Shown: one piece after another, positions 13,509 through 28,154 of the stretch | Position numbering within the stretch: position 1 is the first letter of the stretch | Layout: each line of letters opens with the position of its first letter | Origin: Candidatus Micrarchaeota archaeon | Lineage (GTDB): Archaea; Micrarchaeota; Micrarchaeia; Anstonellales; Anstonellaceae | Assembly (NCBI GenBank): GCA_026396415.1 | Contig: JAPLWX010000028.1 | Span: 1,922 to 65,921, forward strand | Length of the DNA stretch: 64,000 nucleotides | Direction: 5' to 3' | Notes under the pieces: model-generated | The model's database searches: none | Seen by the model: only the letters and a program-made list of their open reading frames with translations | What the model was told of the DNA's origin: nothing | Translations under genes and position numbers: made by a program

Positions 13509-13655
13509 AGCATTTGGATTGGGTGACCCATCATTTTTAAACTCGCTTCGGCAGAAATGCTCTCGCAGGGATGGCAGTTGGAGCCGCTCTTGCGGCTGCC
13601 CGGCCATCCCAGGGCGACCTATTGCTTTTAATCCCCATATTGCAAGAACTGTCTC

Positions 13656-13768
13656 GCAGGGATGGCGGAGCCCGGTTTAACGCGCCAGACTCAAGATCTC
13701 CGCGCAAGTGCGCGGCATGCGTTATCTGGTGACTTAGGTCTTCGGGAGTTCGAATCTCCCTCCCTGCA
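13656..13768 (+). tRNA. tRNA-Leu(CAA) with ~28-nt intron after position 37
   Basis: Acceptor stem GCAGGGA/TCCCTGC, anticodon loop CTCAAGA, T arm GGGAG-TTCGAAT-CTCCC, long variable arm. The sequence atctccgcgcaagtgcgcggcatgcgtt splits the anticodon stem CCAGA/TCTGG. No CCA encoded. Confidence 0.65.
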
Positions 13769-13919
13769 CCTTGTATCATTCTATAGTTGTACCGCTGGAC
13801 TTCGACACGCCCCTAACCCAACTTAGTCAATTTACTGAGGTAAAAACGTGCCGAATTGTGCAGCAAGCTATAAATAGTACTTAACTCAGGACAGGGGGCT
13901 CACTCCGAGGTGAGCACCC

Positions 13920-15119
13920 ATGAACGAGTACGTTATGTACAAATCGCAAACCAACTTCGAGCAGGAGCTGGGAAGATTGAAGGCCTCGGCTTTGCCTGCG
14001 AAGGCCAAGACGCAAATCGAGAACTTCGCACGGATACGCCTTGCCAAAGGCTCGGGCAAGCTCCGCGTTGTGAAATGCATGTACTGCGTCCGGCTGCTTG
14101 CTCAGTGGCTCAACAAGGATTTTTCAAAGGCGACAAAGACCGACCTGATCCGGCTGGTCACCGATATTGACTCCAAAAACTATGCCGAATACACACGCTA
14201 CGATTTCAAAATTGTTTTGAAAATGTTCTACAAGTGGCTTCTTGGGAAAGACGAGGAATTTCCCAATGTCATCAAGTGGCTAAAGCCAAGGCTGAAAAAC
14301 GAAAAGCACAAACTACCAGAGGAATTATTGACAGTTGAGGAAGTGCAAAAGCTCGCCAACTCGACCACCAATCCACGCGACAAGGCGCTTATTTTGGCAT
14401 TATACGAGTCCGGCTGCCGCATTGGTGAGATGCTTTACCTCAAACTGAAGAACGTCCAGTTCGACAATTACGGAGTTGTGCTGATGGTGAACGGCAAGAC
14501 CGGAAGCCGAAGAGTCCGCATAATCGCAAGTGTTCAGGTTCTCGCCGCGTGGCTTCAGGAGCACCCGGACAAAGACAATCCGGATGCGCCTTTATGGCCT
14601 GCGAGATTGGCGAGATATCAGCCAGTGCCTTGCGCCTATCCCTCGATTCGCGCAATGCTCCGCAGGGCAAGCAAGGCAAGCGGCATAAGAAAACGTATTT
14701 ATCCGCATCTTTTCCGCCATTCAAGGGCAACCTCTTTGGCAAACAAACTGACAGAGGCGCAAATGAAAGAATATTTTGGCTGGACGCAAGGAAGCGAAAT
14801 GGCTGCCACCTACGTTCATTTGTCCGGTAGGGATGTTGACACTGCGCTTCTGCAATTGTATTCCATGAAGGACAAGCCGGTCGAAAAGGAGCCAAAACTA
14901 GACCTCAGAATCTGCTCCCGCTGCAAGGAAAAGAACTCGCCTACGCAGTCATTCTGCGGAAGGTGCGGCAACCCGTTTGACGAAAAGGTGCTCATCAGCG
15001 ACTACAACAAGCAGGGGAACGGAATAATGAACGTCCTGATGCAGGACCCGGAAGTGAAGGCGCTGCTCGTGAAAAAAGTATTCGCGATGGGGCTGGACAA
15101 GGAGCTGTTGGAGGAATAA
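13920..15119 (+). CDS. tyrosine recombinase/integrase (copy 1) with C-terminal zinc ribbon
   Basis: Catalytic R (CRIGE), HLFRHS (HxxR) and Y (ATYVHL). C-terminal CSRC-x11-CGRC zinc ribbon. Immediately downstream of the tRNA. Confidence 0.85.
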   Translation: MNEYVMYKSQTNFEQELGRLKASALPAKAKTQIENFARIRLAKGSGKLRVVKCMYCVRLLAQWLNKDFSKATKTDLIRLVTDIDSKNYAEYTRYDFKIVLKMFYKWLLGKDEEFPNVIKWLKPRLKNEKHKLPEELLTVEEVQKLANSTTNPRDKALILALYESGCRIGEMLYLKLKNVQFDNYGVVLMVNGKTGSRRVRIIASVQVLAAWLQEHPDKDNPDAPLWPARLARYQPVPCAYPSIRAMLRRASKASGIRKRIYPHLFRHSRATSLANKLTEAQMKEYFGWTQGSEMAATYVHLSGRDVDTALLQLYSMKDKPVEKEPKLDLRICSRCKEKNSPTQSFCGRCGNPFDEKVLISDYNKQGNGIMNVLMQDPEVKALLVKKVFAMGLDKELLEE

Positions 15120-15700
15120 TTTTTTTGCATTGGGCAGCCAGCCGAGCTGCTCAATCGTTTATAAAGAACTTTGAGCAGCTCAAACACCGTTCCTTGCGCT
15201 ATAATCGCTATCCAAACGTTGATATTTGAGCAGCTCGTACCTCCAGTATATCATTGCTGCGCAGCTGCTCAAAGCTGTTCAGTGAATCAGTCATACTGAA
15301 CAAATGACAACACAATATTCTCAGAAGAGCAAACCAATGAAGTAGGCTGTTCTGGCTGCTGGAACATGCATTTACGCTCAGTATTACGCTCAATTTTTGC
15401 TTGCCTTTTTGTTTTCTATGCGCAGCCAGGAATTACGCTCAGGTTTACGCTCAACGGAGTAAAATAAGCGCAGTAGCAGAGAAATACTATCTGGAGGCGA
15501 TTCGCTTAAATCAGGCGCAATTGGCGGCCAGAACTGGTGTTTAAGCGCAGAATAAGCGCAATCGCCACCGACTGCCGAGATTTTCGATGATGCAGAAAAA
15601 AGTAAGCGCAGATTAAGCGCAATGAATTTTCTGCGCACTTTTTGGAAATAAGCGCAGAGGGTGCGCAAAGGAAATTTTACAGAGAAAATGAATAGTTACA
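15120..15700. repeat. iteron-like repeat array 1 (GAGCAGCTC x4, TTACGCTCA x4, TAAGCGCA x6)
   Basis: Three families of 8-9 bp motifs, irregularly spaced, in a 580-bp non-coding region downstream of integrase 1. Confidence 0.6.
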
Positions 15701-15735
15701 CTAATAGTAGTCTAAAAAGGGTGAAAAATAAAAAA

Positions 15736-16221
15736 TTACTTGAACTTTGCGCGCTCCGGCTTTTTCTCCTCAGGTGGCATAAGCTGTCCAACATGATAGA
15801 ATGCGCGCATAATTTTTTCATCTAGAAATTGTCTGAAACTCTCCTGCTTGTTGTCTATTGCCCATCTTAGCTCGTTCTTGGGACCCGGAAATCCACCGGC
15901 ATCCTGAATAGGTATAACAATGCCATAGAGGTTCTCGAGCAACTCCTTGGTTGGCTTGGCATTTTTCAAGGAAGGGAGTATTTTCTCCCTGATCGTGCTT
16001 GCAAACACCCTATATATGCCCACATAGGCAGGATGTACATTTTTATCAGTGCCTAATGCTGTCATATCGACAAGTCGTTGCGTCACATCTGCTATCTCTT
16101 TTTTGAGGTTTGTCTCGGCTTTTTGCTTCTGTTCAAGCGCCTTTTGGCCTGGTTTGTCCTTGGCTGCTCCGATCATCGCCCCGCTTTTAGCCGGATCCGC
16201 CCAGTTTTGGAAAATCCACAT
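15736..16221 (-). CDS. hypothetical protein, integrative-element cargo (161 aa)
   Basis: The only ORF in element 1 apart from the integrase. No domain recognised. Confidence 0.45.
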   Translation of the reverse strand: MWIFQNWADPAKSGAMIGAAKDKPGQKALEQKQKAETNLKKEIADVTQRLVDMTALGTDKNVHPAYVGIYRVFASTIREKILPSLKNAKPTKELLENLYGIVIPIQDAGGFPGPKNELRWAIDNKQESFRQFLDEKIMRAFYHVGQLMPPEEKKPERAKFK

Positions 16222-16291
16222 AGTCTCGCCTCGGTCAAAATAGGGTGCAATCCTAATTTAAACCTTATCCCTATCCCCTAGTGGTTCCGGT

Positions 16292-16345
16292 CAGACTCTA
16301 GCATCATCCTTGAGTTGCTCCCCCTGCATCTTGTATCATGCACTA
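16292..16345. repeat. att-like direct repeat (copy B)
   Basis: cagactctagcatcatccttgagttgctccccctgcatcttgtatcatgcacta. Near-identical to copy C. The 3' part matches the tRNA-Leu 3' end. Confidence 0.65.
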
Positions 16346-16585
16346 GTCTTATCGCTATCTTTCGTCAATGCACGTCTATTCCTGCGTCAATCTGCAACTA
16401 GCATAGTAGGCACAATAATGCCAAATTACGCACGAACTATAATGAGGCCCCTGCCAAAACAATAATGGCATGAAAAAGAAGCATCTTGCTGCCCTCGTCA
16501 ATGCCCTAACTCCTCCTCGTTGCGTGTCTCGCCTAGGTTTATATAGAAGGTCAAGCAGGACAGGGGGCTCACTCCGAGGTTAAGG

Positions 16586-17728
16586 TTGAAGAACTCGCCC
16601 TTGCCTGCGAAAGCCAAAACACAGATTGAGAACTTCGCACGGATGCGCCTTGCCAAGGGCTCCGGCAAGCTCCGTGTTGTCAAGTGCATGTACTGTGTTC
16701 GCCTGCTCGCTCAGTGGCTCAACAAGGATTTTTCAAAGGCGACAAAGACCGACCTCATACGGCTGGTTACAGATATCGACTCCAAAAACTATGCTGAATA
16801 CACACGCTACGACTTCAAAATAGTCCTCAACATGTTCTATAAATGGCTTCTCGGAAAAGATGAGGAATTTCCCAAGGTCATCAAGTGGCTCAAGCCAAGG
16901 CTGAAGAACGAAAAGCACAAACTGCCGGAAGAATTGCTGACCGTTGAGGAAGTGCAAAAGCTCGCCAATTCCACCACCAATCCACGCGACAAGGCGCTTA
17001 TTTTGGCATTATACGAGTCAGGATGCCGCATAGGTGAAATGCTATACCTCAAACTGAAGAACGTCCAGTTCGACAATTACGGAGTTGTATTGATGGTGAA
17101 CGGCAAGACCGGCAGCCGGAGAGTCCGCATAATCGCAAGCGTTCAGGTTCTTGCCGCATGGCTGCAGGAGCATCCGGACAAAGACAACCCGGATGCTCCA
17201 TTATGGCCTGCGAGATTGGCGAGATACCAGCCAGTGCCTTGTGCCTATCCCTCAATACTCGCAATGCTTCGCAGGGCAAGCAAGGCAAGCGGCATAAGGA
17301 AACGCATTTATCCGCATCTTTTCCGCCATTCAAGGGCAACCTCTTTGGCAAACAAGCTGACAGAGGCGCAAATGAAAGAATACTTCGGTTGGACGCAAGG
17401 AAGCGAGATGGCTACAACTTATGTTCACCTCTCAGGGCGAGATGTGGACACCGCTCTTCTGCAATTGTATTCCATGAAGGACAAGCCGATTGAGAAAGAG
17501 CCAAAGCTCGACCTTCGAATCTGCTCACGCTGCAAGGAAAAGAACTCGCCAACGCAATCCTTCTGCGGAAGGTGCGGCAACCCGTTTGACGAAAAGGTGC
17601 TCATCAGCGACTACAACAAACAGGGGAACGGAATAATGAACGTCCTGATGCAGGACCCGGAGGTGAAGGCGCTTCTGGTCAAGAAGGTCTTTGCGATGGG
17701 GTTGGATAAGGAATTGCTGGAGGAATGA
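16586..17728 (+). CDS. tyrosine integrase (copy 2, N-terminally truncated, possible TTG start or pseudogene)
   Basis: More than 95% identical to copy 1 from AKAKTQIENF onward. The first ~22 codons are replaced by unrelated sequence. No in-frame ATG. The ORF track starts at TTG. Confidence 0.7.
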   Translation: MKNSPLPAKAKTQIENFARMRLAKGSGKLRVVKCMYCVRLLAQWLNKDFSKATKTDLIRLVTDIDSKNYAEYTRYDFKIVLNMFYKWLLGKDEEFPKVIKWLKPRLKNEKHKLPEELLTVEEVQKLANSTTNPRDKALILALYESGCRIGEMLYLKLKNVQFDNYGVVLMVNGKTGSRRVRIIASVQVLAAWLQEHPDKDNPDAPLWPARLARYQPVPCAYPSILAMLRRASKASGIRKRIYPHLFRHSRATSLANKLTEAQMKEYFGWTQGSEMATTYVHLSGRDVDTALLQLYSMKDKPIEKEPKLDLRICSRCKEKNSPTQSFCGRCGNPFDEKVLISDYNKQGNGIMNVLMQDPEVKALLVKKVFAMGLDKELLEE

Positions 17729-17734
17729 TTTCTT

Positions 17735-18440
17735 TTCTTTTGGGCATTGAACAGCTAGCCGAGCTGCGCAATCGTATATAAACATCTTTGCGCAGCTCAA
17801 ACGTTGTTTCTCACGCGATAAACGCTATCCAAACGTTGTTCTTTGCGCAGCTTTCTTCTCCAGAGTATACATGCGTGCAAGCTGCGCAATAGCTGCGCAA
17901 GGAATGAGTGCAATAAGAATAAGACAGCACAATATTCTCAGAAGAGCAAAACAATGAAGTAGGCTGTTCTGGCTGCTGGAACTAGCAATTACGCTCTGTA
18001 TTACGCTCAATTTTTGCTTAGCTAATCGCGTTTCTTGTCGCAGCCAGAGATTACGCTCAAGTTTACGCTCAACGGTGTAAAATAAGCGAGGTAGCAGACA
18101 AATACTCTCAGGAGGCGATTCGCTTAATTTCATAGGAATCGGACGCCAGAACGGGCGTTTAAGCGCAGAATAAGCGCAATGCCCACTGACTGTCAAGTTT
18201 CTCTAGCTCGCAGAAAAATTAAGCGCAGATTAAGCGCAACGAAAACAGGCAGACTCACAGATACTAGCAGGCAAATATTATCTGGGAACGAAACACGCGA
18301 TTTAAGCGCAATTGGCAGCCAGAACAAGAGTTTAAGCGCAAAATAAGCGCAATCGCCACCGACTGTCAGGGTTTTCAATGATGCAGAAAAAAGTAAGCGC
18401 AGGAGTAAGCGCAATGAATTTTCTGCGCATTTTTTGGAAA
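17735..18440. repeat. iteron-like repeat array 2 (GCGCAGCT, TTACGCTCA, TAAGCGCA families)
   Basis: Same architecture as array 1 with more TAAGCGCA copies (at least 10). Downstream of integrase 2. Confidence 0.6.
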
Positions 18441-18451
18441 GCTCTTTGGCG

Positions 18452-18820
18452 TCAAAATGACTGCTCTGTTTTTTCTGATTTTGGCTGCGCGAGTATGCCC
18501 TCAATTTCCTTATGCACCTGTTGCCGCAATTTGAAGGTGTTTCCCATCATCACATAGCCCTGCCAGCCCGAGTTGGATAGGAGTATCCTGCTTTGCTCGA
18601 TTTCGCCTGCCGCGTATTTTGACCTGAAAAGCTCAAGCCTGCCAAGAACCCGGCGCACGTTGCTTTTCTTGAGTATGCGGAAATGGTAGAATGCCCTGAA
18701 ACCAAGGAGCGGCACGCCAATCTGTTTTTCACCTCGCTCTGGGTAGGGGATTTTGCCGTCGTTTGTGGTGCGGATGGATTCGAATACCTGAAAGCCGAAC
18801 ATCACCGGCAGCGATTGCAC
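18452..18820 (-). CDS. hypothetical protein, element cargo (122 aa)
   Basis: ORF co-directional with the next gene. No domain recognised. Confidence 0.35.
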   Translation of the reverse strand: MQSLPVMFGFQVFESIRTTNDGKIPYPERGEKQIGVPLLGFRAFYHFRILKKSNVRRVLGRLELFRSKYAAGEIEQSRILLSNSGWQGYVMMGNTFKLRQQVHKEIEGILAQPKSEKTEQSF

Positions 18821-18834
18821 GCCGGGAGGGCAAT

Positions 18835-19962
18835 TTAGTGCTTGTTAGCCTTGAGGTCGCTCGCCTGCTGCGGGCTTATCCTGCGCAGAACCCTTCCATT
18901 GGGTGTGATGATAGTTTTGCCTTCGGAGATTATTTGTTCTGGTTTTATGCCTGCTGATTCGCTTGTGAAAAAGGGGGTGCCAGCCGGCTTTTCCTCAATG
19001 GTAAGCTTCCGTTTGATCTTGGGCAAGAGAAAGATATTTGCAACTGCATCCGCGTGGTCTTTTTCAGCCCATATGGTTTCACGGGTGGAAATGCAATAAC
19101 CATACTCAAAGTTGCTTATTGCATTAATGAGATGGTGGGGGCTTTTGAAATAGAGACTGAAAGCCGGATGATTGGGAGGCAGATTAATTTCCATGCCAGG
19201 AACCTCAATCAGTAGCACGTTTTTTGCAAATTTCTTGATATCACGCAGCCTGCCCTGGATCTCCCCCATGGCCTCGACCAGGTTAAACCTGAGTTGAGTT
19301 GCAATATCACTGGCAAACCGGCGCTCATTTTCGTCGAGTTCTTTGTTGTATTCCCTGATCGACTCGAAGTTCATTGAAGTAAAATACTGGATTAGGATGG
19401 GTGTGTTGGCGAGTCGTTTGAACTCCGAAAGAGGGAAGAAGTCATCTGGGGCTAAGCTGTTCATTGCATGGACTTCCATCACATAGGTCGATGTTTTACC
19501 GTTGTATTTTGCAAAAATGTCGCTTATCTGCCTTACGCGCTGAAGGTAATCCCAGATGCCCAATGCGCAGCCGCAGGCTTTGTTCGAGTCGGCAAGTTCC
19601 CCTGCCGAGATTTTTTTGCGGATTGACCAACCGATTTCCATTCCATCGTCATTTTGCATCTGTTCTGTTTTCACGCCCATCCGTTCCAGCTTTTCTGCAA
19701 GCGCCCGCTGGAATGGCAAGGTGGTTGGATGCTCACTTGTATGCGGCGATAACAGCACTACTCTTGATGGCTTGGATGGCATAGTGAGGCGTCTGACGAG
19801 TGGAATATCCTTGAACACTGGTTCGCGTATTCTAAGAGTCTGGCGCAATTCAAACCCTAAACTCATGTTATAAAAAGTGTATGCAAGGGTATTTAAAGCT
19901 TTCATCAGGTAGCTCAAGCCAGGGGGCGAAGCCACCTCAAACCCCAAACTCCCCGGTCTCAA
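18835..19962 (-). CDS. hypothetical protein, element cargo (~375 aa)
   Basis: Long ORF in the lower-GC element. No confident domain assignment. Confidence 0.45.
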   Translation of the reverse strand: MRPGSLGFEVASPPGLSYLMKALNTLAYTFYNMSLGFELRQTLRIREPVFKDIPLVRRLTMPSKPSRVVLLSPHTSEHPTTLPFQRALAEKLERMGVKTEQMQNDDGMEIGWSIRKKISAGELADSNKACGCALGIWDYLQRVRQISDIFAKYNGKTSTYVMEVHAMNSLAPDDFFPLSEFKRLANTPILIQYFTSMNFESIREYNKELDENERRFASDIATQLRFNLVEAMGEIQGRLRDIKKFAKNVLLIEVPGMEINLPPNHPAFSLYFKSPHHLINAISNFEYGYCISTRETIWAEKDHADAVANIFLLPKIKRKLTIEEKPAGTPFFTSESAGIKPEQIISEGKTIITPNGRVLRRISPQQASDLKANKH

Positions 19963-20040
19963 TCCACTTCGCCTTCACGAGCTCAAAAGAAGGCTGGCTG
20001 AGAGAGAACGCCGGGAACTCTGATGCCGCTCAGCCTCTAG

Positions 20041-20094
20041 CATCATCCTTGAGTTGCTCCCCCTGCATCTTGTATCATGCACTAATCCTGCCGC
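20041..20094. repeat. att-like direct repeat (copy C)
   Basis: Identical to copy B over 48 nt. Followed by a remnant of the integrase-upstream region (ctaactctccctcgttgcgtgtct) and a TAAGCGCA iteron. Confidence 0.65.
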
Positions 20095-20228
20095 TGCATT
20101 TCACAGCCCCTCGCCTGTCCTCCGTCAAGCCCCTAACTCTCCCTCGTTGCGTGTCTGTATTAACGGGCGAAGTTTCCTTAGGCTGCCCATGTCTTCTAAA
20201 ATGCAGAAAAGATTAAGCGCAATTGCTT

Positions 20229-22031
20229 TCAGTTGAAAATCTGCCTGTTTGCCCCTATCGGCGTGCCTTTGCATCTGATATAGCTTGGGACAATCACTTC
20301 GCCATTTTTGTAAATGACGGAGTTTCTCATCCCCTCGATGCTGGCAGGGAAAAAGCCGTTTTTTAAGTTGAAAACCGCGCCGGTTATGTCCCCGGCTGCC
20401 CCGACCACTATCGTCCCGGGCGATTTTTCAGAAGTCATGTCCACAATGTTTGCCTTGCCTTTCTCATTCTTGCCGCCAAAGGAGCAGCCATAGTATATTG
20501 CGAATTTTGCGCCAGCAGTGAGTTTTCCAACGTAATACTGGTCTTTCTTTTCATTGGCATCCACCCTCGTGTCGCTTGGGCTTGCGGGATAAAACTCTGA
20601 GCCGATGATGCTTTTGCTTCCCACCCGGATGCTGCTGTCCTTTTTCCCTTCAATGGGCTTGACAGCCTTGTTGTTGGTCTCCACGTGCGTTTCGCCAAAA
20701 AGTGAGGAATTCAGCGCCATGTCGCCAGGTTCGCCATGGCCTGCATAAATCATGCCAAAGCCCCTTTTGGCAAGGTTGCCCCCTTCGTTGGCCTCCACAG
20801 CGTCCCTTATCACCCCAAATTGGGGCACAGAGCCAGCCTCGAAAACATACAGCTTGTAATGCTTTGAAAGTTCAAACAGCGTATCCTGGAGGTTCCTGAA
20901 TGTATCCGAAGCGCCCATCAAGCCCATAAGGCTTTCCGAGTTGCCGGCTCCACCCCGTGGCAGCACGACAATAAGGACATCCTTTCCGGAATTATAGGAC
21001 GGGTCCTCATAGTTCTTGATAAGCTCGTCAACCAGCCTCATGTCGCCCTGTTTCCATAGCCTGTCCGCATTTGCTATCCCGAAGTACCTATGCAGCTTGA
21101 GGAATTTGTCCAGCGTCTCAGGCTTGGTGTCAGGCAAGCCACGGTAAAGCAGATTTTCCAGGTAGCGCAGCGGCTCCTTCTCACCCTGTTCAATTATCTT
21201 GGCCAGGAAATCCGCTTCGACCTTGAGGGTTTCCAGCTTTTCCCCTATTGGCTTGTCCCGGGATAGTATCCTGAGGCTCCAGAAAGCTTCGTATGATGGA
21301 TTCTGCTCAAGCTGCGATGCCGAAAATCCGAACTTGAATATGTCCTCTATTGTTTTATTTTGCAGGTCATCCCTTCCTTCTTCATGGGCATTTCCAAGAA
21401 AGTAATCGAGCGTTTTGAGCAGGCTTAGCGCATGGCTGGGCTCGACTTTGCTGGTTCCAGCATCATACAATGCGCGCTCCTGCGCAAGGATGGAAACGTA
21501 CTTATCGAGTATTTTGGTCCTGAGGCCGGAATTCTCTGGGCGGAGGAGGAAGTCGGAATTTTCCAATTCCTCTGTGAAGAAGGTAAAATCGCCAATATCT
21601 GGGTTTTTCAGATGGCGAGCTGCGGCTGTTCCTGCAAAAACAAGTTCCTTGAAAAGAGCGATTTTTTCAGGCGCCTTCATTTTTTCAAATGCGCCCTCCT
21701 TGTTCCCCAGCCACCCGTAAAAGTCATCGCCAAGGCTGCTGACCAACAGCCCAAGCCCATCTTGTGTGTTCCGAGGGTTCTTTTGGAAAGTGAGGCCTTC
21801 GGTTGCCACGGTTGCATCGGAAAGGATAAGGAGGAAATTTTCATAGGCGGAATTGCCCATGTCACGCTTTACCCTATCCAGCACGGCGATTGCGCGTTCG
21901 TCCCCTTTTAGCACATCGCGCAGCATCCCGTCGATTTCTTCAGCCTTTTCATGAGGATCCGCCTTATCCGAAATAATCGCAGGGATGCTGTATGGAACGC
22001 CCTCCAGGCCTTGCTTGTCATTATCTGCCAT
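20229..22031 (-). CDS. hypothetical protein with C-terminal clan-CD-peptidase-like (caspase/gingipain/CHAT-like) His-Gly/Cys dyad
   Basis: About 600 aa. C-terminal blocks LIVVLPRGGAGN, MIYAGHGEPGD and AIYYGCSFGG follow the hydrophobic-x4 + HG and hydrophobic-x4 + C arrangement of clan CD proteases. The N-terminal ~400 aa are helical with unknown function. Confidence 0.45.
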   Translation of the reverse strand: MADNDKQGLEGVPYSIPAIISDKADPHEKAEEIDGMLRDVLKGDERAIAVLDRVKRDMGNSAYENFLLILSDATVATEGLTFQKNPRNTQDGLGLLVSSLGDDFYGWLGNKEGAFEKMKAPEKIALFKELVFAGTAAARHLKNPDIGDFTFFTEELENSDFLLRPENSGLRTKILDKYVSILAQERALYDAGTSKVEPSHALSLLKTLDYFLGNAHEEGRDDLQNKTIEDIFKFGFSASQLEQNPSYEAFWSLRILSRDKPIGEKLETLKVEADFLAKIIEQGEKEPLRYLENLLYRGLPDTKPETLDKFLKLHRYFGIANADRLWKQGDMRLVDELIKNYEDPSYNSGKDVLIVVLPRGGAGNSESLMGLMGASDTFRNLQDTLFELSKHYKLYVFEAGSVPQFGVIRDAVEANEGGNLAKRGFGMIYAGHGEPGDMALNSSLFGETHVETNNKAVKPIEGKKDSSIRVGSKSIIGSEFYPASPSDTRVDANEKKDQYYVGKLTAGAKFAIYYGCSFGGKNEKGKANIVDMTSEKSPGTIVVGAAGDITGAVFNLKNGFFPASIEGMRNSVIYKNGEVIVPSYIRCKGTPIGANRQIFN

Positions 22032-22212
22032 ATGCCTCCATTGCTTATTCTTCAAAAACCCTTTAAATGCACATCTTTCCAGCGCCATTTCATCATTGAA
22101 ATGGATAAGCGCACTTCTGCGGATTGAGCCTGGCGAAATCTTGCATGATACTATGGTTGCACCGCCGCCTTTTGCAGGTTTCCGGATTTTGCCAGCCGAT
22201 CGTCAGCCTCTA

Positions 22213-22246
22213 GCATCATCCTTGGGTTGCCCCTGCACTTTTTGTC
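22213..22246. repeat. att-like direct repeat (copy D, degenerate), distal boundary of element array
   Basis: cagcctctagcatcatccttgggttgcccctgcac lies immediately after the ubiA-family gene stop. Confidence 0.55.
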
Positions 22247-22250
22247 CTCT

Positions 22251-23105
22251 TTAAAGCAGGCTCGCCGCATATCCGAGCAGCCCCACGCCAAGCGCGAGGA
22301 GGGAGGATTTGCGCAGTGAGATTAGGGTGGCGCTGTCTTTCTCAGTTGCGCGCGCGGCAACGTAAGCCATTGCTGCAAAGGAGAGCGCGGTGATGATGAT
22401 TAAGCCCAGCGAGAGGATGTTTGTGCGGAGCCCAAGCGCAAAAGGCGAAAGCGACAGGGGCACGAGCGCCGCGTAGAGGAGCGCGGCAAAGAGGAGGGAA
22501 TTTTTCTTCCCGATGACAACAGGCAATGTGCGCGCGTTCCTGTGCAAGACATCGCCTTCCATGTCCTCTGCTGACTTGATGATTTCCCTGCCAAGCCCAG
22601 CCACAAATGCCACGAGCGCGATTGCCCAAATCTGCGGGTAAAGCGCGGGCGCGACCACGAGGTTCCCGAAAAGGAATGGGATTGCCATGGAGGCTGCGAT
22701 GTACATGTTTCCCACGAGCAACAGCTCCTTAAGCTTGAAGTTGTAGGCAATCGAGAGGAAGGCGAATATGATGGTGATGCAAAGCGCGGCAGGGGGAAGG
22801 GGAAGCGCGGCTGCGATGCCTATGATATAGCAAGATGCGGCTGCGATTAGAGCGTGGCTGGGCTTGATTTCACCGCTTGCAATAGGCCTGTCCCCCCTCT
22901 TGTTCGCCTTGTCGGTTTTCACGTCAAAGCAATCGTTGAGCGCAAAGCTGCCCATTTCTATGAAGACAGGCACTGCAAGGGAGCAAAGCAGCAGCGGGAG
23001 GGCAGGGAGCGCGCCTGACAGGAGCTCGCCCAGCAATACCGCCACGGCTAGCAGGAGCGCGTGCTCGATGCGGAAGAGCCGGAGATACGCGGATATTGCC
23101 TTCAT
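22251..23105 (-). CDS. UbiA-family prenyltransferase, probable digeranylgeranylglyceryl phosphate synthase
   Basis: NDCFDVKTDKAN (NDxxDxxxD) motif. Eight or nine TM segments. 284 aa, typical of archaeal DGGGPS. Confidence 0.75.
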   Translation of the reverse strand: MKAISAYLRLFRIEHALLLAVAVLLGELLSGALPALPLLLCSLAVPVFIEMGSFALNDCFDVKTDKANKRGDRPIASGEIKPSHALIAAASCYIIGIAAALPLPPAALCITIIFAFLSIAYNFKLKELLLVGNMYIAASMAIPFLFGNLVVAPALYPQIWAIALVAFVAGLGREIIKSAEDMEGDVLHRNARTLPVVIGKKNSLLFAALLYAALVPLSLSPFALGLRTNILSLGLIIITALSFAAMAYVAARATEKDSATLISLRKSSLLALGVGLLGYAASLL

Positions 23106-23263
23106 GGAAATGGTTGCGAGAGGGAGGTTTAAAAGGTGTATTTTCCATCTCTTCCACGTGAGAGGATATGGACATATTTCACATAGGTTTGCCTAGGACA
23201 TTTTTGGGCGTGAAAAATTCCGGCGGGAATTTTTCAGAAGTGGAGCCCAGAGGCTCCACTAAG

Positions 23264-24085
23264 ATGCCGAATGACGGGAAGACGGCGCGCTACGTGGTGC
23301 TCTCCTCGCCCTACGAGGGAACGGTGTCATACGGCACGGGCACGAAAAACGGGCCGCATGCCATTATCGAGGCTTCGCGCCAGGTGGAGACATATGACAT
23401 CGAGCTTGCGCGCGATTTTGAGGGGTGCGGCATTTACACCGCGGACGAGCTCGAGGTGAGCCATGCCTCGCCCGAGAAGAACTGCGGGTACGTTCAGGAG
23501 GCAGTGGAGGAAGTGCTCAAGGCGGGCAAGGTGCCCATTCTGCTTGGCGGGGAGCACTCAGTCTCGGTGGGCGCCTTCAGCGCAATTGCTGCGAGTGGGA
23601 AGGCAAAGGACGTTTCAGTGCTGCATTTGGATGCGCACGCGGACATGAGGGACGAGTACGAGGGGACGAAATTCAACCATGCCTGCGTGATGAGAAGGTG
23701 CCGCGAGAAGCTGCATGCCGTCTCTGTTGGAGTGAGGAGCTACTCGCTTGAAGAAGCGCAGGAAATTAAAAGGCAGAAGTGCGGCATTTTCGGCGTGGAG
23801 TTTAACGAGGGCGACGTGCTGAAGAAGCTTCGCAAGGATGTTTACATTTCAATTGATTTGGACGCGTTTGACCCGTCCGAATGTCCTGCTGTGGGGACGC
23901 CTGAGCCTGGCGGCTTGAGGTGGAAGCAAGTTACTTCGCTTTTGAGAAAGGTATGCGAACAGAGGCGCATAATAGGCTTTGACGTGGTGGAGCTCGCCCC
24001 GATACCAGGGCAGCATGTGTCAGACTTTTTGGCAGCAAGGCTCGTTTACAAGCTGATTTGCTACATTGAGGCGAATAGGAAGTGA
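23264..24085 (+). CDS. speB: agmatinase/ureohydrolase family protein
   Basis: GGEHS, DAHADM and SIDLDAFDP manganese-binding motifs of the arginase/agmatinase fold. An upstream in-frame ATG at 23168 is also possible. Confidence 0.8.
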   Translation: MPNDGKTARYVVLSSPYEGTVSYGTGTKNGPHAIIEASRQVETYDIELARDFEGCGIYTADELEVSHASPEKNCGYVQEAVEEVLKAGKVPILLGGEHSVSVGAFSAIAASGKAKDVSVLHLDAHADMRDEYEGTKFNHACVMRRCREKLHAVSVGVRSYSLEEAQEIKRQKCGIFGVEFNEGDVLKKLRKDVYISIDLDAFDPSECPAVGTPEPGGLRWKQVTSLLRKVCEQRRIIGFDVVELAPIPGQHVSDFLAARLVYKLICYIEANRK

Positions 24086-24090
24086 CGCGG

Positions 24091-25368
24091 ATGGCAAACG
24101 AAACGAAAACTTCGGCAATTTCAGGCTTTTACAAGCTAACACGCAGCGAAAGGATTGGCAAGGTGGCGCGGTTTTCAGCATTGACAGAGGAGCAGAAAAG
24201 GCAACTGGCATCTGACTCGCCTCTTGGCTTCGAGGTGGCGTCAAGGATGGCGGAAAACGCGCTTGGCCTTCATGCCATGCCGCTTTGCGTTGCAACGAAC
24301 TTTTTGGTGAATGGGAAGGAAGTGCTGGTGCCCATGGCAATCGAGGAGCCCTCGGTCGTCGCGGCAGCAAGCAATGGCGCGAAGCTTTGCAGGGACAGCG
24401 GCGGGTTTTTCGCGGTTGCGGACGCCCCAATCATGGTGGGGCAGGTCCAGATTGTGGGCGCCAATGACGCGCAAAAGGCGGTGCGCGAACTCAACTCGAA
24501 AAAGGCAGGGATAATCAGTGCCGCCGAGCCTTTCGCCGCGGGCATTGCGAAGTACGGGGGCGGCATAATGGGCTTTTCCGCGCGCGCGCTGCCCACGGAA
24601 AGGGGGGAAATGGCGATCGCCGAGTTTGACATCGACGTGCGCGACTCCATGGGCGCAAACACGGTGAATACCATATTGGAGGGCGTGGCGCCTAAAATTG
24701 AGGAAATATCCGGAGGGAAAGTGCGCCTCAGGATACTCTCAAATCTTGCAGTGAAGCGGCTGGTGAAGGCAAGGGCAGTCTGGAAGCGAGGCACCATCGG
24801 AGCGGACTGCGTGGAGGGCGTGCTTGACGGCTGGGCATTTGCAGACGCCGACATTTACCGCGCATGCACGCACAACAAGGGGATAATGAACGGCATTGAT
24901 GCGGTTGCAGTGGCAACCGGCAATGACTGGCGCGCCGTCGAGGCAGGGGCGCACGCATTTGCCGCTGCAGGCGGAAGGTACCGCCCGCTCACCCGCTTCA
25001 AGAAGCTTGCAAACGGGGATTTGGAAGGGGAGATTGAGCTTCCCATGGCAGTGGGCATTGTGGGAGGGGCGACCCGCTCGCTCCCCTCTGCGCAGGCTGC
25101 GCTTGCCATATTGGGGGTGAAAACCTCGCAGGAGCTTGCGTGCGTGATGGCATCAGCCGGCCTCGCGCAGAATTTTGCCGCGCTGCGCGCGCTGTCCACA
25201 GAAGGGATACAGCGCGGCCATATGGAGCTCCATGCGAAAAATCTGGCGATTGCATCAGGCGCGAGCGGAGAGGAGTCCGACAGGGTGGCTGCGCGCATGA
25301 TCGGGGAAAATGATATTTCTGCGAAAAAAGCGGCAGAGCTTTTGGAAAAGGAAAGAAGGAAAAAGTAG
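24091..25368 (+). CDS. hmgA: 3-hydroxy-3-methylglutaryl-CoA reductase (class I)
   Basis: EEPSVVAAASN, DSMGANTVN and GTIGADCV blocks. About 425 aa. Confidence 0.9.
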   Translation: MANETKTSAISGFYKLTRSERIGKVARFSALTEEQKRQLASDSPLGFEVASRMAENALGLHAMPLCVATNFLVNGKEVLVPMAIEEPSVVAAASNGAKLCRDSGGFFAVADAPIMVGQVQIVGANDAQKAVRELNSKKAGIISAAEPFAAGIAKYGGGIMGFSARALPTERGEMAIAEFDIDVRDSMGANTVNTILEGVAPKIEEISGGKVRLRILSNLAVKRLVKARAVWKRGTIGADCVEGVLDGWAFADADIYRACTHNKGIMNGIDAVAVATGNDWRAVEAGAHAFAAAGGRYRPLTRFKKLANGDLEGEIELPMAVGIVGGATRSLPSAQAALAILGVKTSQELACVMASAGLAQNFAALRALSTEGIQRGHMELHAKNLAIASGASGEESDRVAARMIGENDISAKKAAELLEKERRKK

Positions 25369-27162
25369 GTGCTTGCGATGAAATTTGATACCAGGGAAAT
25401 TGTTGCGATTCTCATTGTTTTTCTCCTGCCCCTGGGACTGGGGCAGTATGTGGCAAAGGCAACGCTTCCCGAGTATGGCGCGGCTGTGCAGATAAAGGAG
25501 GCGCTGACGGGGACAATTGGCTCGCAGCTCGAGTGCGCTGGCACGCAGGCGGAATGCATCGCCAAATCGCATGCGCTGCACATCGCAGCGGCGTCTTCGC
25601 TTGAGAAAGCGCATGCGGCGCTCCTAGGAATGCCTGCCGCATCCACGCAGGCAATCATCGGCTTCCTGCTGATTTTTTCCCCCCTGCTTTTTGCCCTCAG
25701 CTCCGTGCTGCTCTACCTTGCGTGCAGGGAGATGGCGTACAAGAAAACGGAGTCGGTGTTCGCGGTCCTTCTCTTCGCCCTTTCTTCCACGGTGGCGCTT
25801 GCCTTCCTGCCAGGAGTCTACGGGAGCGGCCAGCTCGCAGTTTTCCTTTTTGCCGCGTCATTGCTGCCGTTTGCCATGTTCGTGCACAAGCCGGACAGGA
25901 AGGCAATGCTCGCGGTGGCGGCGCTTTTGGGGTTTGGCGCAGGCTATGTGAACGCCTCATTTGCGCTTGCAGGCATTGCGATGGCAGTGGCGTTCGCATT
26001 TGCCCACCACAAGAAGAAGGAGGGGAAAAACTACCTGGCAATGCTTGGCGTGCTGGCGCTGGTTTTTGCAGCCGCGGGCTTGCTGTCCCCTGACAAATCC
26101 CTGCTTGCATTCTCTGCGGACAGCCTGTCGCAGGCTGCGGACGGCATGCCGTTCCTAATCGCTGGCGCCGCGGTCTGCCTCGGGCTTTTCTTTTTCGGCA
26201 GGCGCGATTCTGAATATTTCGCCTTGCTCGCGCTTGCGCTGGCGCTTTCCGGCTTTTCGCCCCTTGCAGCGGCCATCCTCCTGGTTTTCCCTGTTGCAGA
26301 GGGAGCCACCAAGCTCATGGAGGACGTTTCAAAAGGGGCAAAGCTTGCAGCCCTGTTTGCCTGCGCTTTTTTCATGGTATTCGGGCTTGTTTATGGGAAC
26401 CTGTCCATCTACCCCGCGCTTGGCGCGGCTTTGATGCTGGGCGTGCTTGCGCCGCTCTGCCTGCACCTTTACAGCTACAATGCGCGCGCCATTTTTTCGG
26501 TGATGGGGGCGGGGTTGCTGCTGCTCTCCGTTTTCTTTGCGCTATTCATCCAGATGCCCCCGCAAAAGCAGGGCTACCCGGATTACACCGACCCTGCGCT
26601 GGCTGCTGCGCTTTCCTACCTTTCAGGCAGCGGCGCACAGGGACTGGCAACGCTTGAGCGGGCGGATGCGCTCTCATTCTACCTTCCGGGCGTGCCGCGC
26701 GAGCCGGCTGCAAATGTCGAGGGGCTGCTGCTTTCCGGCAATGCGAGCGGGAAGCCCGGCACGTATATCCTGCTGTCCCTGCCCACGCTCGAGGCGCTTT
26801 CGCAAAAAGGCGGGTTTGAAGTCTACTACTATGCGCGGAATTACACCAACGGAGGGGCAACCTATGCGCTTTTCGTCTCGCAGGGGGGAAGGCTGATTTC
26901 CCGCGAGCTTGCAAGCGGGGGGAAATTTGCGCTCAAGGACGGCGTGGTGCTTGACAGCTATGGTAGGTATTATGCGCCGGTCCCGCTTCCGCGCATGGTG
27001 ATGCTCGACAGCTCCAAGCCGATAAGCGACAAGGCAAACAGGATGCTGCTGCTCGATGAAGGGGGCATGCCGCCGCACCTGGTGAGCATCTATTCCGGCA
27101 TGGACAGCCGCGTGGCGCTTGCAAAGGAATTTGCGGGAGTGTCGGTTTACAGGGTGAACTGA
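25369..27162 (+). CDS. polytopic membrane protein with C-terminal soluble domain (possible GT-C-fold glycosyltransferase)
   Basis: About 11 TM helices followed by a ~200-aa extracytoplasmic domain. Sits at the head of the glycosylation locus. No WWDYG motif. Confidence 0.5.
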   Translation: MLAMKFDTREIVAILIVFLLPLGLGQYVAKATLPEYGAAVQIKEALTGTIGSQLECAGTQAECIAKSHALHIAAASSLEKAHAALLGMPAASTQAIIGFLLIFSPLLFALSSVLLYLACREMAYKKTESVFAVLLFALSSTVALAFLPGVYGSGQLAVFLFAASLLPFAMFVHKPDRKAMLAVAALLGFGAGYVNASFALAGIAMAVAFAFAHHKKKEGKNYLAMLGVLALVFAAAGLLSPDKSLLAFSADSLSQAADGMPFLIAGAAVCLGLFFFGRRDSEYFALLALALALSGFSPLAAAILLVFPVAEGATKLMEDVSKGAKLAALFACAFFMVFGLVYGNLSIYPALGAALMLGVLAPLCLHLYSYNARAIFSVMGAGLLLLSVFFALFIQMPPQKQGYPDYTDPALAAALSYLSGSGAQGLATLERADALSFYLPGVPREPAANVEGLLLSGNASGKPGTYILLSLPTLEALSQKGGFEVYYYARNYTNGGATYALFVSQGGRLISRELASGGKFALKDGVVLDSYGRYYAPVPLPRMVMLDSSKPISDKANRMLLLDEGGMPPHLVSIYSGMDSRVALAKEFAGVSVYRVN

Positions 27163-28154
27163 TGGCGGACATTGCATTCCTTGCGGCGATATTGGTGACT
27201 GCGTACTGCCTCACATCGTTTGCCATGCCGGCAGTGATAAGGAAGATGAAGGCGGCCGGGATTGTCGGGCATGACGTCAACAAGCCAGGCAGGCCGGAAG
27301 TTGCGGAAATGGGCGGGCTGGGCATCGTCATGGGCGTGGTAGGCGCGCTCCTGCTTGCCATGGCAATGCACACCTTTTTCGGCTATTCGCTCAACCTCAA
27401 CGAGATAATGGCTGCGATGCTCACCATGGCGATAATAGCGCTCATCGGGATATTCGACGACCTGTTCGACATGAGGAAGGACGTGAAGACGCTCCTGCCC
27501 ATGGTTGCCGCGCTCCCGCTCGTGGCGCTGGCTGCGGCAGGAAGCACCGCTGTAACGCTTCCGTTCATAGGCCCGTTCGACTTTGGCATCTTCTACATCA
27601 TTGTGCTTATCCCCCTCGGGGTCACGGCGGCTGCAAACCTGACAAACATGCTTGCAGGCTTCAATGGCATGGAAGCCGGGATGGGCTGCGTGATGTTCGC
27701 GTGCGTGGCGCTTCTCGCAGCGGCGAACGGCTCGACCGAGATGGGGCTGATTTCCGTCGCAATGCTTGGCGCATTGCTGGCATTCATGCGCTTCAACTGG
27801 TATCCAGCCAAGGTGTTTATCGGCGACATCGGGACCCTTCTTATCGGAGGCGCGCTTGCAGCCGCTGTGATTGTGGGCAACCTGGAGTCTGCCGGCGCGA
27901 TATTGGTGATCCCTTGCCTTTTTGATTTTGCCATAAAGGCTTACCATGGGTTCCCAAGCACGGGCTGGTGGGGCGAGTGCGGCAAGGACGGAAAGCTCCG
28001 CCCGTATGAAGGCAAGGTGCGCGGGCTTTGCCAGCTTGTGATGAAGCTGTCCGGAGGCATAAGCGAGCGGGGCCTCGTGCTGCTGTTCATCGCAGCGGAA
28101 GTGTTATTTGCCTTGCTTGCGATTCTCCTGTATGGGAGGGGCATTTTCCCCTGA
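27162..28154 (+). CDS. aglH: UDP-GlcNAc:dolichyl-phosphate GlcNAc-1-phosphate transferase (GT4 MraY/WecA/GPT family)
   Basis: DDLFD and NLTNMLAGFNGMEAG motifs. Ten TM segments. Start overlaps the upstream stop (TGATG). Confidence 0.85.
   Translation: MADIAFLAAILVTAYCLTSFAMPAVIRKMKAAGIVGHDVNKPGRPEVAEMGGLGIVMGVVGALLLAMAMHTFFGYSLNLNEIMAAMLTMAIIALIGIFDDLFDMRKDVKTLLPMVAALPLVALAAAGSTAVTLPFIGPFDFGIFYIIVLIPLGVTAAANLTNMLAGFNGMEAGMGCVMFACVALLAAANGSTEMGLISVAMLGALLAFMRFNWYPAKVFIGDIGTLLIGGALAAAVIVGNLESAGAILVIPCLFDFAIKAYHGFPSTGWWGECGKDGKLRPYEGKVRGLCQLVMKLSGGISERGLVLLFIAAEVLFALLAILLYGRGIFP

Follow-up and report, generated by a model that had tools for sequence, protein, structure and literature searches.

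A predicted caspase-fold cysteine peptidase, related to DUF4347, in a tandem array of small integrative elements of Micrarchaeota

Within a 64,000-nucleotide stretch of a Candidatus Micrarchaeota contig (the window), one open reading frame raises two questions: whether the C-terminal domain of its product is a cysteine peptidase of clan CD, as an original prediction proposed from motifs in the sequence, and whether the gene is cargo of an integrative element. The ORF occupies 20229..22031 on the minus strand (stop codon 20229-20231 included) and encodes 600 amino acids with the three motifs in the order given by the prediction; the motif residues are conserved among homologues, so their occurrence is not due to chance. 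The earliest in-frame ATG (22088) gives a longer ORF, 20229..22088, of 619 amino acids. The 600-residue form starts at Met20 and corresponds to the NCBI gene model P0001 ('hypothetical protein NTX79_03870, Candidatus Micrarchaeota archaeon'). The N-terminus of the homologue P0003 (MGNDD) pairs with MADND of the target at Met20, while GGAGG and TTTAAA are found 4 nt and 30 nt upstream of this ATG, respectively. Met20 is therefore the better start. Residue numbers refer throughout to the 619-residue frame (subtraction of 19 gives those of the 600-residue form), in which the motifs are LIVVLPRGGAGN from residue 372, MIYAGHGEPGD from residue 446 and AIYYGCSFGG from residue 530.

The target sequence has few detectable relatives. 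It matched no Pfam family, even at E up to 1, and gave no match in NCBIfam, PHROGs, PADLOC or the PDB sequences. No relatives of the single target protein were found among the GTDB species representatives. A word-indexed homologue search recovered the target alone, and three proteins when profile A3 was used; an exhaustive search was thus needed to find the family. This search (phmmer, 1.84 billion representatives) yielded 12 distant homologues in total. The alignments divide the protein into three segments. Residues 20-272 (21273..22031, minus strand) are variable and could be aligned, in parts, to P0002, P0003 and P0004 only (phmmer coverage). Residues 273-364 (20997..21272, minus strand) constitute a helical module that is conserved in alignments A2 and A3, with the motifs RGE (G302, E303), LHxYxGI (G337) and GDxxLxDxLI, the last containing the invariant D349. 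Residues 365-608 (20265..20996, minus strand) comprise the predicted caspase-fold domain. As read by eye, the N-termini of two homologues, P0009 and P0011, resemble a signal peptide or a membrane anchor.

We examined the fold by structure prediction. An AF2 model (m11615c75926a; pLDDT 77 and pTM 0.82, from an MSA of 11 sequences only) places an alpha/beta domain after the helical module, whose helices have pLDDT values of 72-96. The domain is predicted to run in the order strand 1 (370-377), R378, helix, strand 2 (411-418), helix, strand 3 (444-449) and H451, followed by a variable, low-confidence insert (462-496), a helix, strand 4 (527-533), C535, a helix, and strands 5 and 6. The best 50 PDB matches in Foldseek were all caspases (caspases-1, -3, -7, -8, -9 and -11), with probabilities of up to 0.98; these matches are weak (E ~3e-3, TM 0.35-0.41, rmsd 7-9 A). 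The full-length model retrieved caspases again, in addition to a Bacteroides C11 protease. In the viral library BFVD a Pithovirus 'Caspase' ranked second and clostripain-like proteins were present, with some alpha/beta hydrolases and helicases among the low-ranking matches. These predictions support an alpha/beta domain with a caspase-like fold of the clan-CD type. The N-terminus had been predicted to be helical over ~400 residues. Its helical character is borne out, as the full-length model shows nothing but helices up to residue 361, although the peptidase domain begins near residue 365 and not 400. The helices of residues 20-272 have pLDDT values mostly of 55-73 in this model. No recognizable relative of the N-terminal ~345-360 all-helical residues was found in Pfam or by Foldseek; the N-terminal region matched only designed helical repeats in the PDB, and the family profile found the same class alone among the PDB sequences, by way of a low-complexity helix.

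The positions of the putative catalytic residues in this fold are of note. In caspases, legumain, gingipain, separase and the CHAT proteases, the catalytic His and Cys each sit at the C-terminal end of one of two neighboring parallel strands. His451 (GHG; codon at 20736..20738, minus strand) follows strand 3 of the model and Cys535 (YGCSFGG; codon at 20484..20486, minus strand) follows strand 4, and the two would occupy the same positions at the ends of adjacent parallel strands; both codons were checked. The C-terminal region is covered by 11 homologues, and their alignment shows G337, D349, R378, G380, H451 and C535 to be invariant although identity is 20-30% otherwise. H451 and C535 are also invariant in 13 DUF4347-type proteins, and the His, the Cys and D395 remained so after a bona fide DUF4347 protein was added to the alignment. 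The spacing between His and Cys is 84 residues in the target. It is roughly 30-55 residues in known clan-CD enzymes and ~47 in the homologue P0008, and by the latter the excess in the target is an insert. A class I glutamine amidotransferase or alpha/beta-hydrolase triad was considered for the domain and rejected, as the nucleophile precedes the His in those enzymes and no nucleophile-elbow motif is present here.

Profile comparisons relate the domain to a known family. For these searches a family consensus was used, edited by removal of the variable insert. It matched DUF4347 (PF14252) with 35.9 bits (E 8e-9), more than the 24.6 bits that Pfam sets as its gathering threshold, whereas Peptidase_C14 (PF00656; 19.2 bits, E 1.1e-3, cut-off 21.4) and CHAT (15.8 bits, E 0.01, cut-off 24) fell just below theirs. 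Single members matched DUF4347 below the threshold in 4 of 12 cases, the homologues scoring 14-17.5 bits. The alignment of the family to a group of DUF4347-bearing proteins by hhalign gave 97.7% (E 2.4e-12) over 175 columns, inclusive of the His and the Cys. Judged by these profiles, the family and DUF4347 are homologous at the superfamily level. The aligned columns share strand 1, a conserved Asp, the GHG and the Cys motif. In contrast to DUF4347, the target family adds the 90-residue helical module, a PRxG motif after strand 1 and the long insert between His and Cys. Proteins of the DUF4347 type, as retrieved here, are short (250-420 amino acids) and carry Cys-rich repeats or a kinase domain, with no long helical N-terminus. 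The literature on DUF4347 consists of incidental mentions and no functional study, and a search for PF14252 returned nothing. The clan-CD assignment of the original prediction thus passes the two checks named with it, conservation of the dyad and the predicted structure, and the profiles, sub-threshold for C14 and CHAT, point the same way. We regard the proteins as a rare, new family of predicted caspase-fold peptidases, probably active.

Comparison with characterized members of the superfamily sets the target apart from each. Caspases and metacaspases (C14) are the best structural matches and share the His after strand 3 and the Cys after strand 4. Both also have an arginine after strand 1; it is Arg179 in caspases and, by its inferred position, Arg378 of the PRxG motif in the target (codon at 20955..20957, minus strand; from the alignments), a candidate S1-pocket residue. 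Arg378 is invariant in the family and absent from the DUF4347-type relatives. There is no sign in the target of a p20/p10 linker after the Cys, its long insert being before this residue, and its helical module is unrelated to the CARD or DED prodomains. The QACxG pentapeptide and the SHG histidine motif of C14 caspases are replaced by YGCSFGG and AGHGE. Separase (C50) and TPR-CHAT (Csx29) resemble the target in that an extended N-terminal region, helical or made of repeats, precedes a C-terminal caspase-fold protease, yet their sequences are not significantly similar to it. The target showed neither TPR nor ARM repeats, lacks a CRISPR or cohesin context and is far smaller than separase. The C80 domains of the MARTX and TcdA/TcdB toxins and C11 clostripain likewise carry a dyad in the order His, Cys on a fold like that of caspases, whereas the target has no toxin context and matched neither the Peptidase_C80 nor the C11 Pfam model.

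The surroundings of the gene bear on the second question. The gene is within an array of three tandem units at a tRNA that has an intron and a long variable arm (13656..13768, plus strand; Rfam 45.6 bits, E 2.8e-7), which is the integration site. This tRNA was missed by ARAGORN and reads as Leu-CAA by eye; the att core at 13762 lies in its 3' end (junction J1). The core, CCCTGCA, occurs four times (13762, 16322, 20061 and 22231) with matching P and P' arms, in the layout B-O-P' ... P-O-P' ... P-O-P' ... P-O-flank expected for tandem integration. Unit A (13769-16328) encodes a tyrosine integrase with a C-terminal zinc ribbon (13920..15119, plus strand; Pfam Phage_integrase, E 3.5e-19). Unit B (16329-20067) encodes a second tyrosine integrase (16586..17728, plus strand), identified by Pfam and by repeat comparison, of about 87% nucleotide identity to the first. 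The target gene is the single ORF of unit C (20068-22230). The left boundary of this unit is junction J3 (P arm, core at 20061-20067 and P' arm; 20029..20160, plus strand) and its right boundary, which is also that of the array, is junction J4 (P arm and core at 22231-22237; 22202..22237, plus strand), both delineated from the repeats. Beyond J4 is host DNA, the 3' flank of a UbiA gene. The prediction of element cargo is accordingly upheld in that the gene is flanked by the att copies at 20061 and 22231, with the qualification that its own unit keeps both att arms and has no integrase.

Several further features of the array were recorded. The element-specific motif TAAGCGCA was found in 17 plus-strand copies, all inside 15465-22113; in the motif scan, single copies were at 20214..20221, 7 nt past the stop codon of the target gene, and at 22106..22113, upstream of it. 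The GC content is 0.49 in the array and 0.51 in the target gene, compared to 0.58 in the flanking host DNA. Contigs from Logan contain the linkage of UbiA, J4 and the target gene in five samples, and the five independent contigs all stop 174 nt beyond the stop codon (~20055), within the J3 repeat. The units are 2.2-3.7 kb in length with one cargo gene each, and there are no conjugation, virion or structural genes in the array. The other two cargo ORFs (161 and 375 amino acids) are unrelated to the target (hhalign 0.1% and 5.6%). The array is a tandem accretion of small single-cargo integrative elements in Micrarchaeota. In streptococcal ICEs, CIME-like, integrase-less units that can be mobilized in cis take part in tandem accretion at tRNA sites. 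The terminal unit here likewise retains its att arms without an integrase; it differs in its archaeal host and in the small size of the units, and its mobility is putative.

The protein family is independent of these elements. Co-occurrence with the integrase family had been put forward as a check of the prediction, and none was seen: 0 of 80 loci of the same integrase family (hmmsearch, flanks of up to 6 kb per side) held a homologue of the target. In the opposite direction, five homologue loci had no integrase, no shared att arms and no copy of the element-specific motif. No gene neighbor was conserved among the homologues, which sit amid ordinary, unrelated archaeal genes. As the family is rare and is found elsewhere in such surroundings, the copy in unit C would be captured accessory cargo. 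With both att arms present and the integrase absent, the unit may be a decayed element or may be moved in trans by the neighboring integrases.

With moderate confidence, we propose a two-part protein, a helical N-terminus joined to a putative clan-CD cysteine peptidase, encoded by captured element cargo. The C-terminal ~245 residues would be a cysteine peptidase domain of the caspase-hemoglobinase fold, a divergent relative of DUF4347, preceded by a variable helical stretch and then by the conserved module of ~90 residues. From the invariant dyad we infer catalysis, most likely with Cys535 as the nucleophile and His451 as its general base. The helical N-terminus may bind a substrate or partner, or may gate the active site, in analogy to separase and TPR-CHAT. 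Because the family-invariant Arg378 matches the sequence position of the S1 arginine of caspases, a preference for an acidic residue at P1 is conceivable.

Three other accounts of the protein were weighed against this proposal. The domain could be a non-peptidase, either an inert caspase-like scaffold, as are the Raptor N-terminal domain and the pseudo-protease domain of separase, or an unrelated Rossmann-like domain whose His and Cys serve in metal binding or other thiol chemistry. The weak fold matches would be in keeping with this, as would the hydrolases and helicases in the viral library and the lack of a significant sequence match to any characterized enzyme; hhalign of the family with the single caspase-3 sequence gave a non-significant probability of 0.3%, even though its best local alignment (also not significant) pairs H451 with His121 of caspase-3. 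Inert homologues normally lose the catalytic dyad, whereas the His and the Cys are invariant here across proteins as divergent as the family and its DUF4347 relatives. Their order, His before Cys with each after a hydrophobic strand, and the small residues around them (GHG; S, G or A before the Cys) are specific to clan CD, and 50 of the top 50 PDB matches are caspases. We consider a non-peptidase highly improbable. A self-cleaving module, in the manner of C80, is also unlikely, if less so. The sole substrate of the peptidase would then be its own polypeptide, with release of the variable helical N-terminus as an effector. The joining of a conserved C-terminal peptidase to highly variable N-termini across the homologues fits such a scheme, and so do the signal- or anchor-like N-termini of P0009 and P0011. 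As D349, just before the domain, and R378 are both invariant, D349 could, speculatively, be the cleavage site in cis. The target itself lacks a signal peptide, a detectable toxin-like or enzymatic domain in its N-terminus, and a C80 match. The helical module and the peptidase domain are predicted to pack into a single unit (pTM 0.82), and a structural or regulatory role therefore fits the module better than that of a cleavable linker. A candidate type VI secretion effector is reported to contain the related DUF4347 domain (PMC8262886), in favor of self-cleavage with release of an effector.

The original prediction had itself suggested a defense or abortive-infection module, or a maturation protease. 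A viral maturation protease is unlikely, since the array holds no structural genes. As for the former, caspase-fold proteases are effectors in several known defense systems, the gene is within element-derived DNA, and restriction-modification genes occur as cargo in related mini-elements that share this integrase family (L010 with an Eco57I-type enzyme; L055 with a D12 methylase beside a weak PD-(D/E)XK match). Still, there was no match to PADLOC (PADLOC-DB v2) or PHROGs, and unit C has no sensor or partner gene, as the target ORF is its only one. The homologues lack a conserved neighbor or a nearby integrase, the 80 integrase loci lack a homologue, and the same family of elements also carries cargo unrelated to defense (an Lrp/AsnC regulator and ankyrin repeats). 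We hold a protease effector of anti-virus defense on the integrative element to be very doubtful. Our preferred reading thus remains the captured, two-part putative peptidase. A far-reaching extension of it, which we deem quite improbable, is that the protein is the founding member of an unrecognized group of separase-like or TPR-CHAT-like proteases of DPANN archaea, with a helical sensor or scaffold joined to a caspase-fold peptidase that possibly cuts after acidic residues. Its gene would be a single-gene cassette shuttled by very small, tRNA-targeting elements of Micrarchaeota, with a role in symbiont-host interaction or programmed growth arrest.

Caspase-fold proteases are switches for cell death, defense and protein maturation across life, and, to our knowledge, descriptions of them from DPANN archaea are few. 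Our findings on the gene and the array do not overturn the current understanding. If the protein is active, it would represent a rare new branch of the superfamily, and peptidase chemistry based on His and Cys would be likely for DUF4347. The target is a compact, expressible protein in which substrate specificity can be tested. The array is a clean case of accretion of single-cargo elements and bears on how accessory genes are gained in reduced genomes.

The region holds a single long minus-strand open reading frame (20229..22088, 619 aa counted from the first ATG). Its 600-aa form, to which the coordinates of the original prediction (20229..22031) correspond, starts at Met20 and is identical to the sole database entry, 'hypothetical protein NTX79_03870, Candidatus Micrarchaeota archaeon'. 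Met20 is a better start than the upstream ATG, because the N-terminus of homologue P0003 (MGNDD) aligns with MADND, and because GGAGG and TTTAAA lie 4 nt and 30 nt upstream of the Met20 ATG, respectively. Residue numbers refer to the 619-aa form (minus 19 for the 600-aa form). The original prediction assigned a clan-CD-peptidase-like domain to the C-terminus, and its three motifs were found in the claimed order, at residues 372, 446 and 530.

The natural sequence has no match in Pfam, PADLOC, PHROGs, NCBIfam or the PDB sequences. An exhaustive phmmer search of 1.84 billion representative proteins returned 12 homologues, headed by P0002 (34% identity, E 1.5e-39), the others having E values of 1e-16 to 3e-4. 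Identities to the target are about 18-34%, most of them 18-28%, and similarity is concentrated in target residues ~273-610. G337, D349, R378, G380, H451 and C535 are invariant across the 11 homologues that cover this region. The His and Cys singled out originally are among them, and are therefore among the most conserved positions of a genuine family. This family has no Pfam model and about a dozen known members.

AlphaFold2 was run on residues 273-619 with the 11-sequence alignment and gave a usable model (mean pLDDT 77, pTM 0.82), in which four helices, the conserved pre-domain module, precede an alpha/beta domain. Strand 1 (residues 370-377) is directly followed by R378, and a helix leads to strand 2 (411-418), which is itself followed by a helix. 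H451 comes after strand 3 (444-449), ahead of a variable insert of low confidence (462-496) and a further helix; C535 comes after strand 4 (527-533), and then a helix and strands 5 and 6 complete the domain. In clan CD the His follows strand 3 and the Cys strand 4. The same order in the model supports the expected alpha/beta fold with clan-CD-type placement of both residues.

Sub-threshold matches to Pfam DUF4347, with the His and Cys motifs at their centre, occur in 4 of the 12 family members, and a profile search recovered a genuine DUF4347 protein, P0014. We scored against Pfam a family consensus edited to remove the variable insert, which corresponds to no natural protein. It reached 35.9 bits for DUF4347 (cut-off 24.6), 19.2 bits for Peptidase_C14 (E 1.1e-3, below the cut-off of 21.4) and 15.8 bits for CHAT; because the query was edited, the latter two matches count only as support. 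By hhalign, the family profile matched 13 DUF4347-type proteins (97.7%, E 2.4e-12) over 175 columns that take in strand 1, the conserved Asp (D395), GHG and the Cys. Against caspase-3 alone there was no significant hhalign match, the top local alignment pairing H451 with caspase His121. We therefore place the domain in the DUF4347 superfamily as a divergent member whose predicted fold and dyad are those of clan-CD peptidases.

The DUF4347-type proteins P0014-P0028 are short (250-420 aa) and lysine/asparagine-rich, with Cys-rich repeats N-terminally and, in one, a C-terminal protein-kinase domain. They have the invariant motifs AFDxxGD, HLIIMAHG, LLHSCxVG and SIxRGDL in common. Their composition points to giant viruses or eukaryotes with AT-rich genomes as possible sources.

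Up to residue 361 the full-length model (pLDDT 67) is helical throughout, as had been anticipated for the N-terminus, and structural searches matched this region to designed helical repeats only. Among the homologues, P0002, P0003 and P0004 alone could be aligned by phmmer to parts of the first 270 residues. Residues 273-364 form a conserved module (RGE, LHxYxGI, GDxxLxDxLI) that is confidently modelled jointly with the peptidase domain. By analogy, the layout resembles that of separase and TPR-CHAT, in which a helical region precedes a caspase-fold protease. Cysteine peptidases that combine a caspase fold with a helical N-terminus are already a well-known kind of protein; the architecture of the present family is not known to have been described, whether for DUF4347 or for another clan-CD family.

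The gene lies in an array beside a tRNA (13656-13768, Rfam) that has an intron of ~31 nt and a long variable arm and reads by eye as Leu-CAA. ARAGORN reported no tRNA across the entire 64-kb window, this one included, and further intron-bearing tRNAs may therefore go unseen. The att core CCCTGCA, the tRNA 3' end, has exactly four copies within 13-23 kb (13762, 16322, 20061 and 22231), flanked in order by tRNA/P', P/P', P/P' and P/host, where P and P' are the att arms. This is the characteristic pattern of tandem integration by three elements. The units are very small (2.2-3.7 kb; array 13656-22237), each with one minus-strand cargo ORF adjoining the P arm. Unit A (13769-16328) and unit B (16329-20067) each carry an integrase, a motif cluster and an ORF, of 161 aa (15736-16221) and 375 aa (18835-19962), respectively; neither ORF has a Pfam, PHROGs, PADLOC or NCBIfam match or any relation to the target. 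Their tyrosine integrases are near-identical (87% nt identity) and bear a C-terminal zinc ribbon. Unit C (20068-22230) contains the target gene alone. The description as element cargo thus holds in that the gene sits between att copies of the array, but no integrase is present in the unit that holds it. The array has a GC content of 0.49, against 0.58 in the neighbouring host genes, which include UbiA, agmatinase and HMG-CoA reductase. The order UbiA, right att junction (22231), target gene recurs in other samples, on five independent Logan contigs that all end 174 nt beyond the stop codon, within the repeat of the left junction (20061). The linkage is thus genuine, and assemblies break at the repeat.

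The octamer TAAGCGCA has 17 plus-strand copies, all within the array (15465-22113): clusters at 15465-15656 and 18160-18413, each between integrase and cargo gene, plus one copy at 20214 and another at 22106, either side of the target gene. Outside the array the 64 kb hold one copy (8980, opposite strand). It is conserved in the related elements L009, L013 and L055, and may be an integrase arm-site or iteron. TCTCGCAGGGATGGC, the first bases of the tRNA with its immediate 5' flank (13653-13667), is duplicated ~90 nt upstream (13561-13575), perhaps left behind by a past recombination. We also compared positions 22231-27895 of the window with positions 1-5775 of L008 (CAITKI010000153.1, related Micrarchaeota). 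There the UbiA-to-glycosyltransferase block lies 30 nt upstream of the same tRNA's 5' end; in the window it is oppositely oriented and adjoins the last att copy. The breakpoint lies within GCAGGG, a sequence that is at once the 5' acceptor stem of the tRNA and the att core in inverted form, which suggests an integrase-mediated inversion of the entire tRNA-plus-array segment in one lineage.

The analysis shows motif conservation, the predicted fold and DUF4347 homology; the mechanism proposed here is inferred. The target would probably act as an endopeptidase of caspase fold through His451 and Cys535, with the helical N-terminus binding a substrate or partner, or gating. A preference for acidic P1 residues is possible, because in sequence the invariant Arg378 after strand 1 stands where caspases carry their S1 arginine. 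It is less probable that the domain serves as a cis-autoprocessing module like C80, and a non-proteolytic role seems distinctly unlikely. The suggestion of a defence module fared no better: PADLOC was negative, the homologues lack a common partner gene, and a profile search of 80 integrase loci (up to 6 kb of flank per side) found no target homologue, so we regard a defence effector as improbable. The homologue loci show no integrase and no att arms, and their neighbours are unrelated genes (DnaG-type primase, CBS, DUF116, glycosyltransferase, AMP-phosphorylase-like, deoxyhypusine synthase, TrmB and tRNAs). Homologue P0011 lies ~200 nt from two tRNA genes (10683-10857 of L089, 26.5% GC), with no integrase visible on that 11-kb contig. 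The target family is tied neither to the element nor to defence.

The integrase family is common, with 165 matches in GTDB representatives, nearly all from Micrarchaeota, and the cargo of related mini-elements is heterogeneous, ORFans included. It comprises an Eco57I/MmeI-type restriction-modification enzyme (L010, 2215-5151), a D12 adenine methylase adjoining a small ORF whose PD-(D/E)XK match is weak and sub-threshold (L055, 2596-3999), a double Lrp/AsnC regulator with a 566-aa helical ORFan (L012, 2015-4354) and an ankyrin-repeat protein (L013, 6821-7792). In Micrarchaeota the family behaves as a shuttle with a single cargo slot would.
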